From a virus, in IMG/VR virus record IMGVR_UViG_3300037313_000284, positions 76,865 to 140,864 of that record: a stretch of 64,000 bases of DNA; one strand, 5' to 3'. A program made the position numbers and the translations under genes. Position 1 is the stretch's first letter. Every line of letters starts with the position of its first letter. Shown here in pieces: positions 22,447 through 38,578 of this stretch. Under the pieces are notes generated by a model that did not search any database, had not been told where the DNA came from, and was given only the letters and a program-made list of their open reading frames with translations.

Positions 22447-22959
22447 TTATTTAAGTTGAGCAACTGCTAGAGCAAATGCTCGCCGATTTTTCAATACTAA
22501 ACTGATGTTAGGACGGAAAACCAGAGCGTTGGTAGGTAGAAGGTCGTCATATTTTTCGTAACGATTTCGCGTAGGCGGATTAGGGTCGTACAGTTTATAG
22601 CCGTCGTAATAAACAGCGTGTGAACCTCCCACTTTGTTAAGGGACGGCACTGAAAAGATAGCAGGCCTACCCCAAAACTTATGACGGAAGAATTCAGGCG
22701 CAATCGCCCAATCTTTGTGTTGCTCTCGGAAGTCGCTGGCGTCCTCTTTATAATTTGGCGACTTGAAAAGACCCAATTCAGTCAGAATTTTGTCCTCGGA
22801 GCGGATGCCTTCACCGCTATCTGGATCGTAGGCTTCAGATTTAATAGCTGCTTCATAGACTTCTTCGTAGGGAAGAGTTAGCGCCATGGCAATGCACGCA
22901 ATCATGCAATCCGTAGCTAAGCGTTGTTCAATCAGTATCGTCATCGACGTTCTCGTCAT
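22447..22959 (-). CDS. papain-fold C39-like cysteine peptidase
   Basis: QRLATDCMIACIAM, HAVYYDG, LYDP (Q, C, H, D). Confidence 0.7.
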   Translation of the reverse strand: MTRTSMTILIEQRLATDCMIACIAMALTLPYEEVYEAAIKSEAYDPDSGEGIRSEDKILTELGLFKSPNYKEDASDFREQHKDWAIAPEFFRHKFWGRPAIFSVPSLNKVGGSHAVYYDGYKLYDPNPPTRNRYEKYDDLLPTNALVFRPNISLVLKNRRAFALAVAQLK

Positions 22960-29684: not shown

Positions 29685-30200
29685 TCAGTAGCCTTCGAGC
29701 CTTGGACTGCCTCGGCGGCCCTTGCTCTTGTAGGCCAAATTAGTTCTGGCGGAAGGCGGGATGATTGGCGGGGCTTTCCGCGCCGATCCCGGCTGAGTTG
29801 CTATGCGGGCGTGCTTAGCACAGTAGCGGGAGATCGTAATATTTTTGCTATTGCTACGATAGGGAATTTCTTGACCGCAGCACAGATTACTAGCGGCATT
29901 GAAAACCCGCCACGTGCCAACCGGAAAGCGACATTGATTAGGCTTGGCCTCGCTGTATAGGACTGCGCTCATCGTCGGCGGATGGCGCGCAACTTCTATA
30001 ATCTCTGCGCTTGGTGGTTCTAATGTTCCGCCGTTGACCAGAATGAAACTGCGTAAATCCATTCGCGTCTCACGATGCATAGTGTCGACATGTATTGCTG
30101 CCGCCTTCATCAAATCAACGATATTAAAATGGCCTTGCTCCATCCGTTCAGTAATAGCGGCTTTAGCAAAGGCAACTGCCAATGGTGTGTTCGTAATCAT
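29685..30200 (-). CDS. gcrA: GcrA-like protein (C-terminal Zn motif)
   Basis: QCRFPVG...LCCG...RYCAKHARIA matches the GcrA C-terminal CRWP.G..FCG..YC..H motif. Confidence 0.7.
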   Translation of the reverse strand: MITNTPLAVAFAKAAITERMEQGHFNIVDLMKAAAIHVDTMHRETRMDLRSFILVNGGTLEPPSAEIIEVARHPPTMSAVLYSEAKPNQCRFPVGTWRVFNAASNLCCGQEIPYRSNSKNITISRYCAKHARIATQPGSARKAPPIIPPSARTNLAYKSKGRRGSPRLEGY

Positions 30201-30286: not shown

Positions 30287-30829
30287 TCAGTGAAAACCCA
30301 ATTCGCGGCAGAGCGCGCCGACATATTCGTAGGCCTTTTCAATTGGACCTTCCGTCTCGACGTTACGGCGCACGTACTCAATAGCTTGCGCTCGACGTTT
30401 ACTAAATGACAAATGCTTTACCGAGTCGAGACGTTTGGTCAGGATCGCAGTCACGTGCTCACGGTGAGAAATGAATTGCACGCTGGGGTCAGGTGGACGA
30501 TTCTCCACCAATGCGGGTTTATTGTTTTTACCGTTAATAAGCGGCAGATCGATTTCAGGATGCGCTACAGTTAGATCGTGATCCTCGATATACCCATGAC
30601 CATAGCGCATGGACTCGCTGTAGCCTTCCACGCGGTCAACGTGAAGGCCGACAACGAAAGCTGCGCTAACAGGTTCCACCGCCCACGAACCGCCGCGTCC
30701 GCTCTCACGAACCTGTTGCCGTTGTGCCTCGCGTACACCTGCAAGCATTCCCTTATGTGACAGCTTCTCTCCGAAGATAATAGGAACTTTTTCGCCGTCC
30801 ACTTCGACGATGATGTATTTCATTCGCAT
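30287..30829 (-). CDS. hypothetical protein
   Basis: AGGAG RBS before MRMKYII. Confidence 0.7.
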   Translation of the reverse strand: MRMKYIIVEVDGEKVPIIFGEKLSHKGMLAGVREAQRQQVRESGRGGSWAVEPVSAAFVVGLHVDRVEGYSESMRYGHGYIEDHDLTVAHPEIDLPLINGKNNKPALVENRPPDPSVQFISHREHVTAILTKRLDSVKHLSFSKRRAQAIEYVRRNVETEGPIEKAYEYVGALCRELGFH

Positions 30830-30896: not shown

Positions 30897-31268
30897 CTAG
30901 GCGTTGGATTCAGGCTTCGGTACTCGCTTTCGATAGTGCGTGACTCTAGCGCCGGGAACATCGCGTCTATTAATAACACCTCCCCACACTTCGTGGGCAG
31001 GATACCAACTGCCGTCGCCACCGGGCATGTATTCTGTACGAAATTGAACTTCTTCCTTACCGTCCACTTCGGGTGGCATATCGTAACCACTAACTTCAGT
31101 CCAAGCCGCGACCAAATCGATTTCCTTGGGCGCGTCAGCCATAACTTCTATCTTACGCCGCAGATATTCCGGAGCGTAAGCGATAGCGGCTTCCAAAGCG
31201 CCTCGTGCTTCACCCTCACTGTCGGTGTGAGTTGCGGCAACGGTGACTTGGAATGTATAGAACTTCAT
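30897..31268 (-). CDS. hypothetical early protein
   Basis: GGGAGAG RBS before MKFYTF. Confidence 0.7.
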   Translation of the reverse strand: MKFYTFQVTVAATHTDSEGEARGALEAAIAYAPEYLRRKIEVMADAPKEIDLVAAWTEVSGYDMPPEVDGKEEVQFRTEYMPGGDGSWYPAHEVWGGVINRRDVPGARVTHYRKRVPKPESNA

Positions 31269-31320
31269 TATTAACTCTCCCTTGTTTGCAGGCTTTCCTG
31301 TCCGAGTTGGCCTTAGGCGC

Positions 31321-31349
31321 ATCATAGCACAGCTATAAGCGAATCGCAA
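31321..31349 (-). promoter_or_regulatory. sigma70-type early promoter
   Basis: TTGCGA-N17-TATGAT with GC before the -10. Confidence 0.65.
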
Positions 31350-31410: not shown

Positions 31411-32154
31411 TTACGCGTAAGCGCGCCTGCGGCGCATCAGCGCGCCCGCCGAGCCGAAGCCCATAATCATCAGCGCCCACGACGCGGGTTCAGGAACCAC
31501 AGACGCCGGGGGCGGCGGCACTTCGTTCGAGGGCGTGTAAAGCGTCAGCGTCGAAGTGTAGTCGAACGGCGTCTTATAATCGGTATCGACTTGCAGTCCG
31601 TCGAATAGCAGCGTCCCGTTAATCGCAGTAGCAATCACACCGTACTCGCCTGCCGTAGGCGCGCGGTATGAAATTTGCGTCCAAGGCGTCGCCGCGCTGT
31701 AACCCGTTGGGGCGTTGTAGCGCGTCGTAACGCCGCCGTCCGTGATCCACAGCGAGTTATCCTGCATGAGGAATTCAAACACCGGCTTCTGTTCGTTGAC
31801 CTTGTAGAAGCGCACCGACAGTTCCAAGAGGCTGCCGACTTCCGGGTTAACACCCGCCGCGTAGGCGGTAAGTACGTCACCCTCGTTCAGGGTCGCGAAC
31901 GGGAAGTAGAGAATCTTCGATTCGTACGAGGGCGTTCCGCTAATAACCGCCATCTTCGTACCTTCGTATGCCGTGACCGTCGTATCCCCCGACGTGAAAC
32001 TGGCGGCGACGGTTGCAGGATTGATCTGCTCGTAAGGATTCATCCAGTTAGTAAAACTACCGTCTTCGAAACCTCCGTTGACGAGAACAGCCGAATTTGC
32101 GACGCCAGCGAAAGTGATAGAGGCGAGGGCGGCTAGGATAAGCGTACGTTGCAT
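31411..32154 (-). CDS. PEPxxWA-CTERM surface protein
   Basis: Signal peptide, NGGFE, C-terminal VPEPASWALMIMGFGSAGALMRRRR. Confidence 0.9.
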   Translation of the reverse strand: MQRTLILAALASITFAGVANSAVLVNGGFEDGSFTNWMNPYEQINPATVAASFTSGDTTVTAYEGTKMAVISGTPSYESKILYFPFATLNEGDVLTAYAAGVNPEVGSLLELSVRFYKVNEQKPVFEFLMQDNSLWITDGGVTTRYNAPTGYSAATPWTQISYRAPTAGEYGVIATAINGTLLFDGLQVDTDYKTPFDYTSTLTLYTPSNEVPPPPASVVPEPASWALMIMGFGSAGALMRRRRAYA

Positions 32155-32205: not shown

Positions 32206-32235
32206 ACTATAGCACGACTATATCGTAGGTTGCAA
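32206..32235 (-). promoter_or_regulatory. sigma70-type early promoter
   Basis: TTGCAA-N18-TATAGT. Confidence 0.6.
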
Positions 32236-32239
32236 GCGT

Positions 32240-32280
32240 AAAAACGCCCCGGTTTCCTAAAAAGGAAACCGGGGCGTTTT
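32240..32280 (-). terminator. intrinsic terminator closing the Ubl operon
   Basis: AAAACGCCCCGGTTTCCT/AGGAAACCGGGGCGTTTT. Confidence 0.9.
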
Positions 32281-32309
32281 GCGTTAGCTCTTAGCTTTAT
32301 AGGCTACTG

Positions 32310-32759
32310 CTAGCCGCCGCGCCCTTGCGCAACGGTCGTAATCGTCATGTCAGCCGTCAGCTTGCGCGATTCCCCAACCACGCTGTTGTTAGCGTCCCGA
32401 AGCATGAGACTTCCGGTAATGCCCGCTGCCTTCATGGCCTGCTTAACCGTCGAACCGGAAGCCACTTCCGCAGTACCCGACTTCACACCAGCGAACTTGA
32501 CCGTGATGTTATTAGAAGCAACCGGAGCCGGATCGATAGTCGGAGTCGGCTGATCCGTGGTCGTGGCAGGGTCAGGTTGCGCCGTTTCGGTAGCAGCCTC
32601 GCTACTAACAGGTTCCGCTTCCGGCGCAGCAGTCGTTTCAGCGCTATCGTTGGTGGAAGCTTCCGACTGAGCTTCGTTAGTCGGCAGACCCGCGTCAGCG
32701 CTTGCGTCACCCGACACAGTGTTCTCGGTAGCTTCGGAATTAGTAGAATCGTTGTTCAT
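32310..32759 (-). CDS. ubiquitin-like (beta-grasp) protein with acidic disordered N-terminus and C-terminal GG
   Basis: ~80-aa acidic S/T/A/E/P arm, then ITVKF...EVASGSTVKQAM...L..DMTITTVAQGRGG-stop. Confidence 0.75.
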   Translation of the reverse strand: MNNDSTNSEATENTVSGDASADAGLPTNEAQSEASTNDSAETTAAPEAEPVSSEAATETAQPDPATTTDQPTPTIDPAPVASNNITVKFAGVKSGTAEVASGSTVKQAMKAAGITGSLMLRDANNSVVGESRKLTADMTITTVAQGRGG

Positions 32760-32816
32760 AGTCTGTCCTTTTCTAATAACCCACAGAGACGAACAGCCCG
32801 CCCCCGCTTACCAACG

Positions 32817-33503
32817 CTACCCGAACTTGCGGGAAAGCATCTTCCATTGCGGCTGAACTTGGGTAATAACCTCATTAGCCGTCAGATTGTTGTTCAAGGC
32901 TTGCATGCACAACCACAGCGTCATTTGACTGCCGATCTGTGCCGTCGCTCCAATTGAGAGGACGTTACCGCAGGTTCCCCGTTCCTCAGAAACCTCCGAG
33001 TCATCATACAGCGTTTCACGGTAGGAAGCAACTTGCTCCAAATCGCGAGGCGAAAACGCGTAGCTCATCGTTTGATAAGCATCGATACGGGTATCGAACG
33101 CCCATTGCACTTTCGGATTAATGAACAACCCGGCGTTAGTAATGAGCTTACGCACCGCCATGGTATCCACGCACATAAACACCACGTCGTATTTCAACTT
33201 CTCTCGTTCGTAACGCGACACAATCGAGTTAATGGTTGTGCCTGTAGCGTCGTGGATGCGGTAGGTAAGCGCTACTACCTTGGACGAACCAATGTCCTCC
33301 GGTCCGTAAACGTATTGGTTAGGCAGATTGTGCGCTTCCACCACGTCATCATCCATGACGGTGATATTAGTAAGTCCAAGTTTGGCAAGGCCGAGCGCAA
33401 TGCTCGACCCCACCGCACCTGCGCCAATGACAAGGAAGCTTAGATGCTCGAAGGTCTCCGGGTTGAAGACCGATTGGTGTCTAATAATTTCCATGTGGAT
33501 CAA
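32817..33503 (-). CDS. ThiF/E1-like ubiquitin-activating enzyme
   Basis: IGAGAVGS, DDDVVEAHNLPNQ, K, CVD, DTR; candidate catalytic Cys in ERGTCG. Confidence 0.9.
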   Translation of the reverse strand: MIHMEIIRHQSVFNPETFEHLSFLVIGAGAVGSSIALGLAKLGLTNITVMDDDVVEAHNLPNQYVYGPEDIGSSKVVALTYRIHDATGTTINSIVSRYEREKLKYDVVFMCVDTMAVRKLITNAGLFINPKVQWAFDTRIDAYQTMSYAFSPRDLEQVASYRETLYDDSEVSEERGTCGNVLSIGATAQIGSQMTLWLCMQALNNNLTANEVITQVQPQWKMLSRKFG

Positions 33504-34975
33504 TCCTCGTCCTCATCGTCGTCACTGTCATCGTCGCCATCGACAAGCGGGTCGTTAGTATGTGCGTTCATCGCCGTTAGGATTGTCTCTTCGACTTCGT
33601 GAAGAGAATTATTCCCGTCACTCCACTCGCCAGCAATAGCCTGCCATGATGAAACATACGTAGTAGAAGGTGCGGTTTTTCTATCAGGCAGGAGACCAAA
33701 TTTATGATCATATGATTCATCCACCATGCGGTAGTATTCCATTACCGCAAGGATCAACGAATAGTAGTCAAACGTTCGCAAGGCAGAACCAAACACCCTA
33801 CTGAAGGTGCCAACGCAATTGTTGTGCGGGTTTCGATAACCGGGAGTTGGGCTTGCGATGTTTCTGGCACGTACCGCACCGCTGATGTTAACTTGGATTT
33901 CGAACTTACCGCAGTAACGTTCTTCTCCTGTTCGCTGTCTGGTAGCCAACATCGTTTTGGTAATAACCGTGAACCCGAACTTCGTGGGTGTGAACGATTC
34001 CAATTCAGGGATCGTGCGAAGCTGATCAATGTTCGATTGGATGGCAGAGTTAGTATTGTCTTTCGCAGACTTCTCCAGCAATTGCAATCGGCCGATCTTA
34101 AGTTCCTCTTCGATCAAGGCCTTGTTGAGTTTTTCTAGGCGTGTTTCAGCCTTGGTTCTCTCGGCAACGATGTTTTTAGTAATAGCGCCGCGCCACCGTT
34201 CCACCAAAACTTCGTCTGTCACTGGCGTAAGAGGCTGAGCATTCAGCCAATCGACGTGTCCCATAAAGGTCGTAAAGACGAAGTTTCCGACCGTGACGTA
34301 ACCGTGTCGAGAAATAGTAAACTCGTTAGTTTGTATTTTGGGAATCTTGAACGGCTTCGTAGGTGTCGAGTCCGCCGGTGTCAGTTCCGTGAACGCCCCG
34401 TTTAACTTGGGGGCCTTCTCGACGTTGAAATGAATCCCCTCAATCAACACACCGTGCACGTAGACAATCGTCCTGGCGGTTCCTCGGCCAATAACCTCAT
34501 TTGAATTAGCAGAGAACCATGCTTTGGCGCTACCCTCGTCGGCAAGAGCGTCAATGGTGATCAGGTTATTCTGCATGCATCCGAAGATTTTTCGCTGGAC
34601 CTTACCACTATCGCTAGACGCCGGTCTTGTATAATGACGATCCTGCGAACAAGCTTGTTGCAGCGTATGATAATCGTACTCACGCCGATCTGTCATTAGC
34701 GACAATTTCCTGACAGACTTATATCTCTCGTTTCGCTTACTAATTGCTTCATTAGCTGCCGCAACGAACGGGTCATCCGACACGCGAACGCTAGCATGTC
34801 GCCTATCCAAAACGGTCGTAGCGAATTGGAGATTACCTTCCAACTCACTAATAATTCGGTCCAGGCTTCCGGCGGTACCACCTTTCACGGGCTTACCCTC
34901 GACTCCCCGGATTTTCATCATCAGGAGGAAGTTATCACGGTTGGACGGAAGCACGTCGCTAAGACGGATTTTCAT
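33500..34975 (-). CDS. coiled-coil protein with C-terminal prokaryotic E2-like domain
   Basis: GKFEIQVN...VRARN...RNPHNNCVG followed by two helices resembles the HPH..C.G E2 signature; acidic tail. Confidence 0.6.
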   Translation of the reverse strand: MKIRLSDVLPSNRDNFLLMMKIRGVEGKPVKGGTAGSLDRIISELEGNLQFATTVLDRRHASVRVSDDPFVAAANEAISKRNERYKSVRKLSLMTDRREYDYHTLQQACSQDRHYTRPASSDSGKVQRKIFGCMQNNLITIDALADEGSAKAWFSANSNEVIGRGTARTIVYVHGVLIEGIHFNVEKAPKLNGAFTELTPADSTPTKPFKIPKIQTNEFTISRHGYVTVGNFVFTTFMGHVDWLNAQPLTPVTDEVLVERWRGAITKNIVAERTKAETRLEKLNKALIEEELKIGRLQLLEKSAKDNTNSAIQSNIDQLRTIPELESFTPTKFGFTVITKTMLATRQRTGEERYCGKFEIQVNISGAVRARNIASPTPGYRNPHNNCVGTFSRVFGSALRTFDYYSLILAVMEYYRMVDESYDHKFGLLPDRKTAPSTTYVSSWQAIAGEWSDGNNSLHEVEETILTAMNAHTNDPLVDGDDDSDDDEDED

Positions 34976-35005
34976 CTTATTAACTCTCCATTGTATTGTG
35001 GCTGA

Positions 35006-35034
35006 AGCATAGCACGATGTATGAATCGCTGCAA
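35006..35034 (-). promoter_or_regulatory. sigma70-type promoter of the E2-E1-Ubl operon
   Basis: TTGCAG-N17-TATGCT with GC before the -10. Confidence 0.65.
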
Positions 35035-35041
35035 ATCAGCC

Positions 35042-35079
35042 AAAAAGAAACCCGCCACATCGAAACGTAGCGGGTTCTT
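35042..35079 (-). terminator. intrinsic terminator
   Basis: AACCCGC/GCGGGTT stem plus U-tract. Confidence 0.75.
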
Positions 35080-37061: not shown

Positions 37062-37508
37062 TTAAACGTGATACACAACGCCCAACGGTTTCAATTGCTC
37101 GAAACGCGTGTAGCGGAACTTATACCACTGTGACGGGTCGTACACCTTCCCATCACGTACTAACACGCAATGAAGCGTGTCCGCCTCGAACCAACTACGG
37201 CTAGGAACCAAGTGAATGCCGTTGCGGTTGCGCACGCGGTTACGAACACGAATGCGAGCGTCGATATCGTCGGGATTATACTTCTCCGGCCAATGCCAAC
37301 GCACTTGCTGATCGAGTGCCTTCATAGTCGCTACTATCTGTGGGAAACGAAGCCCGCAGATAATATCGTCCGGCTCTTCGAACGGCACGAAATCCTCAAC
37401 GTGTTCGTAGTCGAGTCCCGTAGCCATCGCTATGCAACAAATCGCGCAATCGGCTGCACGACGTTGATAGACCATTTTAATATCAGGTTGTAGCCACGTC
37501 CACATCAT
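37062..37508 (-). CDS. papain-fold C39-like cysteine peptidase (paralog of 22447-22959)
   Basis: QRRAADCAICCIAM, HCVLVRDG, VYDP. Confidence 0.7.
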   Translation of the reverse strand: MMWTWLQPDIKMVYQRRAADCAICCIAMATGLDYEHVEDFVPFEEPDDIICGLRFPQIVATMKALDQQVRWHWPEKYNPDDIDARIRVRNRVRNRNGIHLVPSRSWFEADTLHCVLVRDGKVYDPSQWYKFRYTRFEQLKPLGVVYHV

Positions 37509-37530
37509 TAAATCCCGGCGTTTGTTCGAT

Positions 37531-37677
37531 TCAAATTTCTTGCCAGTTTGTCTTGCACTTAGGGCAAGAAATTTCGTCGCGCCAATGGGTCTCACTCGCT
37601 GTGTGATACTTGCGATGAGCAATAATGCAAATCGCCCCGCTAATTAGCTTGCTAACAGCAAGAATAACTTTTCGCAT
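37531..37677 (-). CDS. 48-aa Zn-binding peptide (not in ORF track)
   Basis: MRKVIL...C...H...CPKC; first gene after promoter, AGGAG RBS. Confidence 0.5.
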   Translation of the reverse strand: MRKVILAVSKLISGAICIIAHRKYHTASETHWRDEISCPKCKTNWQEI

Positions 37678-37852: not shown

Positions 37853-38578
37853 TTATGCGATTCGTGTGCGACGTTTACGTAAGGCCGCTCCAACGAAACC
37901 CATTCCTACGATTAGTAAGGCCCAAGTCTGAGGTTCAGGCACAGGCGTAGTAGGCGGGCCAGTAGGTGGTTCCGTCGGCGGGTTTCCTCCTGGTGGTTCC
38001 GGGTTATTAGGAGGATTCACCGGAGGATTTGGCGGGTTAGGTCTGATAACCGGCGGCTCCGGCATGACAGGTGGATTAGGATTAATTACCGGAGGTTCCG
38101 GATTAGTAGGCGGACCGACCGGTGGCGAAACCGGTGGCTTACCACCAACACCCACGCCGCCATCGCTACCACCTATTCCACCGCCAACCGGGAAATTATT
38201 ATCATCGGGAAGGAACGTCAATCCTTGCTTAACGGGAACCGGAGGCGGCACGGCTGGGATATCACCCAGCACCGGAGGAAGACCGTCAAAGATAATAGCG
38301 GTCATGTAAACCGGGGCCGGGTTTAAATGGCATGCGAAGCGCCATTGAGCGGTTTCTATTTCCCTAATCGGGTCGATGCGAATACGCACCGCACGATAGC
38401 CGTAACGAGACTTAGCGGGCGCTCTAGCCGCCGCAGGTTTAGCGCGAGCGGGACGAGCCTTACGCGGCGGTTCCTTGACCCAGCATTCGGTTTCCCGAAT
38501 CGGTTGCGCTTGAGCGCTGCCAGCGGCCAGCAATCCCGTTACTAATCCCATAAAGACAATGTTGCGCAACTGGCGCAT
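37853..38578 (-). CDS. Pro-rich PEPxxWA-CTERM surface protein
   Basis: Signal peptide, PPV/PNP repeats, VPEPQTWALLIVGMGFVGAALRKRR. Confidence 0.9.
   Translation of the reverse strand: MRQLRNIVFMGLVTGLLAAGSAQAQPIRETECWVKEPPRKARPARAKPAAARAPAKSRYGYRAVRIRIDPIREIETAQWRFACHLNPAPVYMTAIIFDGLPPVLGDIPAVPPPVPVKQGLTFLPDDNNFPVGGGIGGSDGGVGVGGKPPVSPPVGPPTNPEPPVINPNPPVMPEPPVIRPNPPNPPVNPPNNPEPPGGNPPTEPPTGPPTTPVPEPQTWALLIVGMGFVGAALRKRRTRIA

Follow-up and report, generated by a model that had tools for sequence, protein, structure and literature searches.

Ubiquitin-like conjugation in prokaryotes has so far been characterised only as bacterial anti-phage defence, namely by Cap2 of the cyclic oligonucleotide-based anti-phage signalling system (CBASS), by Bil and by Bub. 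Bil (BilABCD, types I and II) comprises bacterial ISG15-like anti-phage conjugation operons (PMC11601596, PMC10557695), and the Bub (6E/DUF6527) operons use Ser/Tyr oxyesters, have no catalytic Cys and contain a DUF6527 serine protease (PMC11601596). The subject of this study is a three-gene operon on the minus strand, at positions 32240-35079 of a 64,000-nt stretch of viral DNA (hereafter the window), which is the right-hand part (positions 76,865 to 140,864) of the IMG/VR virus record IMGVR_UViG_3300037313_000284. The co-oriented genes encode, in the order of transcription, a protein resembling a conjugating enzyme (E2) (gene 1, 33500-34975), a ThiF-type activating enzyme (E1) (gene 2, 32817-33503) and a ubiquitin-like protein (Ubl) (gene 3, 32310-32759). 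The operon is considered likely to be a phage-encoded E1-E2-Ubl system for putative protein conjugation, in which the E2 carries its own substrate-selecting N-terminal domain. If this is true, viruses employ this chemistry in the conflict as well.

Among the described systems, the phage operon is closest to Bil in logic and to Uba5-Ufc1 and Atg7-Atg10 in enzyme architecture. As in Bil, the Ubl, the E2 and the E1 are encoded by separate genes, the thioester-type Cys residues are conserved and a ligase (E3) is absent, the E2 being thought to pick the target directly. Bil is a bacterial defence against phages, whereas the present operon is carried by lytic-type jumbo phages, and the multi-domain E1 of Bil contrasts with the single ThiF domain of 225-228 aa in the phage. 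A JAB peptidase (BilC) always accompanies Bil, whereas a Prok-JAB search gave no match in the three phage records scanned for partner families, namely this record (G000), G001 (complete, 205,908 bp) and the Xanthomonas phage PhiXhv-12. Also unlike Bil are the 320-residue N-terminal domain plus helix of the phage E2 and the Ubl, in which a disordered acidic tail precedes a single beta-grasp domain. In type II CBASS, Cap2 is an E2-E1 fusion found with a JAB peptidase (Cap3) and a cGAS/DncV-like nucleotidyltransferase (CD-NTase), and its substrate is the C-terminus of an enzyme, whereas the phage has separate E2-like and E1 genes, no JAB peptidase and a true beta-grasp Ubl as the predicted substrate; no CD-NTase gene was seen around the operon, no search having been aimed at CD-NTase. 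The operon resembles Bub as a diverged bacterial-type E1/E2/Ubl set whose Ubls have variable N-terminal additions, and differs from it by the conserved Cys residues of both the E1 and the E2-like protein; no DUF6527 match was obtained in the neighbouring genes scanned with Pfam.

Likeness to Uba5-Ufc1 (the UFM1 pathway) and to Atg7-Atg10/Atg3 lies in the single-domain, homodimer-type E1 with a Cys just after the adenylation core, in a divergent E2 without the canonical HPN-Cys spacing (Atg10 itself being among the fold matches) and in a Ubl that is mature or nearly so. Sequence kinship with these systems does not reach past the superfamily level and the large N-terminal domain is found on the phage E2 only; the parallel is offered as one of function, with no claim to membership. 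With ThiF/ThiS and MoeB/MoaD, the operon shares the size and core motifs of the E1 and a small Ubl ending in Gly-Gly, and it differs from them by an E1 that scores below the equivalog level, a constant E2-like partner and an acidic-tailed Ubl. The operon is therefore placed outside Bil, CBASS Cap2, Bub, PRTRC, ThiF/ThiS and MoeB/MoaD. What would be new is an E2 family that has no existing profile, an E2 with its own receptor domain, and a tag consisting of a beta-grasp handle on an acidic, Lys-free disordered tail.

The predicted E1, E2-like protein and ubiquitin-like protein

Gene 2 (32817-33503, minus strand) encodes a minimal ThiF-type E1 of 228 aa when read from a TTG codon. Its homologues start at the residue matching the ATG at 33494, which is the likely start and gives 225 aa; this ATG lies 5 nt past the stop codon of gene 1, so that genes 1 and 2 are probably translationally coupled. 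The product matched Pfam ThiF (PF00899) over residues 18-199 with an E-value of 8.5e-23 and 81.2 bits (cut-off 28.1), and the E1 scored 80.4 bits in the search of the whole record. Matches by sequence in the Protein Data Bank (PDB) were ThiF, MoeB, Uba1, Uba3, Uba4, Uba5, MccB, Cap2 and BubCD, and many PADLOC models of the Cap2 type were matched in their E1 half, the E1 part alone being covered. GAGAVGS, the ribose-binding DDD at 51-53, N59/Q63, K75, C111-x-D113 and C178-G179 were invariant in 8 of 8 E1s from related loci. By the profile match and these residues, gene 2 is a member of the ThiF/E1 superfamily with an intact ATP/adenylation site. The motif ERGTCG occupies residues 174-179, and the candidate catalytic Cys178 (codon 32970-32972, minus strand) lies about 65 residues past the catalytic Asp, directly before a Gly-rich helix. 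No NCBIfam equivalog cut-off (ThiF, MoeB, UbaA and PRTRC ThiF included) was exceeded: scores were 67.8 against a cut-off of 275.25 for TIGR02356, 36-49 against 266-449 for the MoeB models and 50.5 bits against 144.75 for the PRTRC ThiF-family model TIGR03736. Gene 2 was therefore assigned to an unassigned branch of the superfamily.

Gene 1 (33500-34975, minus strand) encodes 491 aa from an ATG behind a GGAGAG ribosome-binding site. In its AlphaFold (AF2) model, with a mean predicted local distance difference test score (pLDDT) of 82.8, a folded N-terminal domain (residues 1-250) leads into a single helix of 67 residues (254-320); next come a beta-meander (325-372), the loop that bears His384 and Cys387, and helices at 391-400, 404-416 and 420-426. 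The motif RNPHNNCVG (residues 381-389, 33809-33835), which holds the candidate catalytic Cys387 (codon 33815-33817) and His384, thus sits between the strand 368-372 and the helix 391-400, and the modelled succession of helix, beta-meander, His-Cys loop and helices corresponds to the element order of an E2. The predicted E2/UBC-like domain covers residues of about 322-448 (33632-34012). All structural matches of this C-terminal domain were of the UBC, RWD or Atg10 type after coiled-coil matches were set aside, and in the Atlas search the nearest named family was Prok-E2_D. When the whole model was submitted to Foldseek against the PDB, nothing was obtained at E-values up to 0.001 and Atg10 was matched weakly, and the N-terminal domain (residues 1-252) gave template modelling (TM) scores of at most 0.32 in the Atlas search. 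BFVD matches were to uncharacterised phage proteins only.

Four close relatives of gene 1 were found among 5.8 billion proteins, and a profile search of 1.84 billion representatives gave 52 proteins, in which the C-terminal 200 residues are common and the N-termini variable. In an alignment of 54 sequences, down to 16% identity, Cys387 and Gly356 were invariant and His384, Asn372 and Gly389 were present in at least 90%. The family consensus is R-Y-x-G-x-F-E-I ... R-N-x-A-x-P ... H-P-H-x(2-8)-C-x-G, with H or N at the first motif position. The core of UBC-family E2s is laid out as Y-x-G-G-x-F ... H-P-N ... C, and the two consensus patterns appear to have the same layout. No family was assigned to gene 1 by Pfam (E-values up to 0.1), PHROGs, PADLOC or NCBIfam, none of the 54 family members had a Pfam match at E-values up to 0.01, a PDB profile search with the alignment gave chance matches only, and tblastn against 50,697 phage records gave no match. 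The protein ends with an acidic tail (residues 477-491, 33503-33550), the Asp/Glu run DGDDDSDDDEDED, which was kept in 4 of 4 close homologues; this end is reminiscent of the acidic tail of Cdc34-type E2s.

Gene 3 (32310-32759, minus strand) encodes 149 aa ending QGRGG before a TAG stop codon. Its residues 1-80 (32520-32759) form a disordered acidic extension, modelled at a pLDDT of about 50 without secondary structure; residues 1-81 include 16 Asp/Glu and 59 Ser/Thr/Ala/Pro/Asn/Gln/Gly, whereas Lys and Arg are absent. The remainder (residues 81-149, 32310-32519) was modelled, with 7 orthologues, as a ubiquitin-like beta-grasp domain of beta-beta-alpha-beta-beta order, with pLDDT above 90 at residues 81-145 and RGG directly before the stop codon. 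The best Foldseek matches in the PDB were all of the ubiquitin family (Caldiarchaeum ubiquitin, SUMO1/2/3, NEDD8, ubiquitin and Atg8), with a probability of 1.00, TM scores by target of about 0.6 and E-values of only about 1e-3. R147-G148-G149 was invariant in 7 of 7 close sequences and the C-terminal residue was Gly in all 12 orthologues. The tails of these 12 are alike in composition (65-134 residues, 10-27 acidic and 0-3 basic) and mutually unalignable, which suggests selection on composition, not on sequence; in the Lys-free tail of gene 3, the flexible part itself would be spared from modification. Judged from the model, gene 3 encodes a ubiquitin/SUMO-like beta-grasp modifier with an exposed Gly-Gly end, already mature. 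No Pfam, PHROGs, PADLOC or NCBIfam family was assigned to it, a PDB profile search with the Ubl alignment gave chance matches only, and tblastn against the same 50,697 phage records gave no match.

These results bear on an earlier sequence-only reading of the window, in which gene 2 was called a ThiF/E1 adenylation enzyme with a Cys in ERGTCG, gene 1 a protein with a coiled coil and a C-terminal domain containing RNPHNNCVG, and gene 3 a beta-grasp-like domain ending GRGG-stop behind about 80 acidic low-complexity residues. The Pfam match and the invariance of Cys178 in 8 sequences agree with the first, and the motif at 381-389 and the single long helix of the model with the second; the model, Foldseek and the composition of the 12 orthologues are in accord with the third. 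The expectation of a conserved Cys was likewise borne out, in 54 relatives, and the model of the C-terminal domain of gene 1 is compatible with the expected E2 fold.

Linkage of the three genes among phages

Wherever the contig reaches far enough, the ThiF gene adjoins that of the E2-like protein, that is, in the window, L002-L005, the P0004 contig, L007 (where only the first 107 ThiF residues are present), L008-L011, L013-L016 and PhiXhv-12; L006 is a short contig that ends right after the E2-like gene. In the four close relatives, the order is E2-like gene, ThiF gene and a gene for a 150-183-aa protein ending ARGG, and in L010 it is E2-like gene, ThiF gene and Ubl gene. L013-L016 have an adjacent ThiF gene and a tailed Ubl ending SGG, HG, MG or SG, the gene of which precedes, separates or follows those of the enzymes. 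Even in distant phages, the linkage of the three genes is strict. Several of the related contigs are 205-227 kb long, one of which has terminal repeats and was rated 100% complete. The locus search with 5 close sequences, the reach of which is close relatives only, gave one IMG/VR locus, and a 5-sequence scan of 185,579 prokaryote genomes, with the same reach, gave no close relative of gene 1.

In L008 (3679-7281) and L009 (3397-6925), two tandem E2-like paralogues, a small helix-turn-helix (HTH) protein, ThiF and Ubl are encoded. The paralogues are 35% identical overall and their E2 half is much better conserved than their N-terminal half. Two E2s with different N-terminal domains for one E1 and one Ubl are what a substrate-selecting E2 predicts, and the diverged paralogues fit E2s with different targets. 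The small protein, of the Xre type and 97-99 aa long, has its gene between those of the E2-like proteins and that of the E1 and may be a dedicated regulator.

The system is also present in cultured Xanthomonas phages. When the phage collection was compared with the operon at the DNA level, a 76-bp piece of ThiF, shared by PhiXhv-12, -16, Ep026 and Ep032, was all that matched. Upstream of ThiF in PhiXhv-12 (L001; 5236-7914, minus strand) lies a gene for an 892-aa protein that matched the gene 1 profile with a probability of 99.1% and an E-value of 7e-19, over a span including the N-terminal domain motif IEGIHFNV, the helix and the core I-H-P-H ... C-L-G-S-F; the same gene occurs in five records (PhiXhv-12, -15, -16, Ep026 and Ep032). 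The Ubl of PhiXhv-12, of 140 aa with a Thr/Glu/Ala-rich tail and the end ASGG, is encoded just upstream of the E2-like gene. A 70-aa open reading frame downstream of ThiF was considered as the Ubl and rejected, as it is without a Gly end. The 892-aa protein is also Cys-rich, with metal-binding-looking clusters (CxxC, CxC and CC repeats) at both ends, which the window protein does not have; these could form a zinc-binding module, and part of the protein may then be E3-like. In the Xanthomonas phages, the annotations of the genes are "thiamine biosynthesis protein" and "hypothetical protein". Ubiquitin and ThiF go unmentioned both in the original description of these phages and in a jumbo-phage review of 2026, and literature searches gave work on bacterial Bil, Bub and CBASS only, with no paper on this three-gene phage family. 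The presence of the operon in cultured phages makes it testable at the bench at once, and the K-GG remnant generated by trypsin would ease the discovery of targets.

Proposed conjugation and the alternatives

In the proposed mechanism, the E1, which is probably homodimeric, as are ThiF, MoeB, Uba5 and Atg7, would adenylate Gly149 of the Ubl, which would then move onto Cys178 of the E1 as a thioester and be handed to Cys387 of the E2-like protein. The latter would transfer the Ubl to a target amino group without a separate E3, the target being picked by the variable N-terminal domain mounted on the long helix. The product would be a target bearing a polyanionic, Lys-free, disordered tail of about 80 residues, which may exert a block, steric or electrostatic, or mimic a nucleic acid. 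It is possible, if rather doubtful, that the cascade serves the jumbo phage as a weapon, the built-in, rapidly diverging receptor domain of the E2 directing the covalent attachment of the polyanionic tail to specific proteins of the host, such as those of defence or DNA binding, which would thereby be disabled; such a weapon would be the mirror image of Bil, which tags phage tails. The sequence-only reading had called the region a ubiquitin-like conjugation operon. The identities assigned to its parts (E1, E2-like protein, Ubl and acidic tail, with no JAB peptidase) stood, and conjugation as the overall reading is supported in part. The lack of a JAB gene beside the operon and of thiamine or molybdenum-cofactor partner genes in the window, also remarked there, extended to all three phage records, in which no JAB, ThiG or MoaE was found.

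Several points weigh against conjugation. The E1 is no closer to conjugating E1s than to the sulfur-carrier activases ThiF and MoeB. Cys178 stands where enzymes of the ThiF and Uba5 types would presumably have their crossover-loop Cys, and by this position it is the putative counterpart of the crossover-loop Cys of ThiF/Uba5, the HMMER alignments ending at about residue 126, short of ThiF Cys184 and MoeB Cys187. No E2 profile (UQ_con, Prok-E2_A-E) matches gene 1 by sequence, and the thioester and the conjugate are species predicted from conserved residues and folds. One alternative is a sulfur carrier modelled on ThiS/ThiF, MoaD/MoeB, TtuB/TtuC and Urm1/Uba4, in which the Ubl would be adenylated and converted with a host persulfide to a thiocarboxylate, and the large Cys protein would thiolate a tRNA, a DNA base or a small molecule. 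ThiF and MoeB are indeed among the best sequence matches of the E1, but it falls far under the ThiF/MoeB equivalog cut-offs (e.g. 67.8 vs 275 bits). The end of the Ubl is ThiS/MoaD-like (...V-x-x-x-G-G), yet the acidic tail before it makes little sense on such a carrier, and we know of no precedent for an acidic tail of 80-130 residues on a sulfur carrier. The tRNA genes of the phage include tRNA-Lys(UUU) and tRNA-Leu(UAA), and U34 of such tRNAs is commonly 2-thiolated; however, no rhodanese, ThiG or MoaE was found in this record, G001 or PhiXhv-12, and PP-loop (PF01171) gave no match in this record or G001 and, in PhiXhv-12, a single match of 16.4 bits, which is below the threshold and lies at a distance of about 20 kb. 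Moreover, the constant partner is E2-like and not sulfurtransferase-like in its modelled fold, and duplicated E2-like genes suit several targets better than one chemistry. A sulfur carrier is considered very unlikely.

It is also unlikely that the Ubl is joined only once to a single dedicated phage protein in a stable covalent complex, as Atg12 is to Atg5 via Atg10, the partner possibly being the E2-like protein itself or a virion/assembly protein. Atg10 does recur among the structural matches, neither an E3 nor a JAB peptidase is present, the gene order is one-to-one and fixed in most loci, and the Lys-free Ubl tail means that no chains can be built on the tail. Against these stand the two diverged E2-like paralogues of two phages, which suggest more than one target, and the position of the operon among small accessory genes, outside any recognisable structural module and with no link to a virion gene. 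The remaining alternative, in which the large protein is a non-catalytic UEV/RWD scaffold and the E1-Ubl pair works without an E2, as in archaeal SAMP/UbaA, is hardly credible because the Cys is invariant in 54 highly diverged sequences, where it stands behind a conserved His at the place of the catalytic Cys of E2s; non-catalytic UEV and RWD domains are typically without this Cys. Protein conjugation with a substrate-selecting E2 is thus the reading preferred here.

Side observations were made on possible deconjugation. Two paralogous small proteins are encoded at 37062-37622 and 22447-22959 (both minus strand), with a Gln, a Cys, a His and an Asp-Pro invariant in 4 sequences, a set that corresponds to the catalytic pattern of papain/C39-like peptidases. 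The Pfam C39 match has an E-value of only 0.04, and a sequence search of the PDB gave no match. In L010/L011 and L008, homologues are encoded at 1.5-3 kb from the Ubl operon; two copies are present in G001 and no copy was found in PhiXhv-12. The tagging may accordingly be one-way, as proposed in the sequence-only reading, or reversible. From their conserved residues, these paralogues are candidate Gly-Gly-specific peptidases or deconjugases.

Transcription signals and genome context

The operon is bounded by hairpins on both sides. The upstream one (35048-35077, minus strand) has a 13-bp stem followed by a T-run, with -21.7 kcal/mol and a z-score of -5.4, and is an intrinsic terminator of the upstream gene, insulating the 5' side of the operon. 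The downstream one (32241-32280, minus strand), which closes the operon, has an 18-bp stem with -34.2 kcal/mol and a z-score of -6.8, followed by UUUUU. None of 200 shuffled sequences folded as well as either hairpin. A predicted sigma-70-like promoter, TTGCAG-N17-TATGCT with a TG-extended -10 element, was recognised by its match to the consensus at 35006-35034 (minus strand). Three co-oriented genes, two terminators and this promoter, all of which the sequence-only reading had listed, were recovered on the minus strand by reading of the sequence and by folding against shuffles. Two occurrences of the pattern TTGCR-N11-15-TGCTATNNT were counted in the window, where chance would give 0.07, and a near-copy of the promoter element, the third in the series, was located at 32206-32235 (minus strand). 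The TG-extended -10 element is repeated before the next two transcription units (32206-32235 and 31321-31349); the element common to the three successive units on the minus strand is TTGC(A/G)-N-(C/T)GTGCTAT(G/A)NT, and a strong hairpin terminator lies between units.

The source record is a virus contig of 140,864 bp with an estimated completeness of 68%, from which a whole genome of about 200 kb was calculated. Among the genes of the record are three for tRNAs, an RNA ligase module and those for SbcCD-like nucleases and a primase. The record is a jumbo phage rather than a bacterial island. The immediate neighbours of the operon are small accessory genes, with no recognisable structural module there.

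Some neighbouring genes give indications of the host. Proteins with a C-terminal PEP-CTERM sorting motif are encoded at 31411-32154 and 37853-38578 (both minus strand; Pfam E-values of 3.5e-7 and 6.5e-7, respectively); one of the two genes is directly 3' of the terminator of the Ubl operon, and a PEP-CTERM-like gene is located directly upstream of the E2-like gene in the P0004 contig. The PEP-CTERM genes suggest a host with exosortase. A 171-aa protein encoded at 29685-30200 (minus strand) gave a weak match to GcrA, a regulator of the cell cycle, in the C-terminal part of the latter (Pfam E-value of 6e-4, sub-cut-off), which hints at an alphaproteobacterial host. Two further genes downstream of the operon, at 30287-30829 and 30897-31349 (both minus strand) and without an assigned function, show synteny with the operon in L010 and in L002-L005 (tblastn E-values from 1e-8 to 1e-43). 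The synteny is not kept in the more distant loci and probably reflects shared ancestry, not membership in the system.

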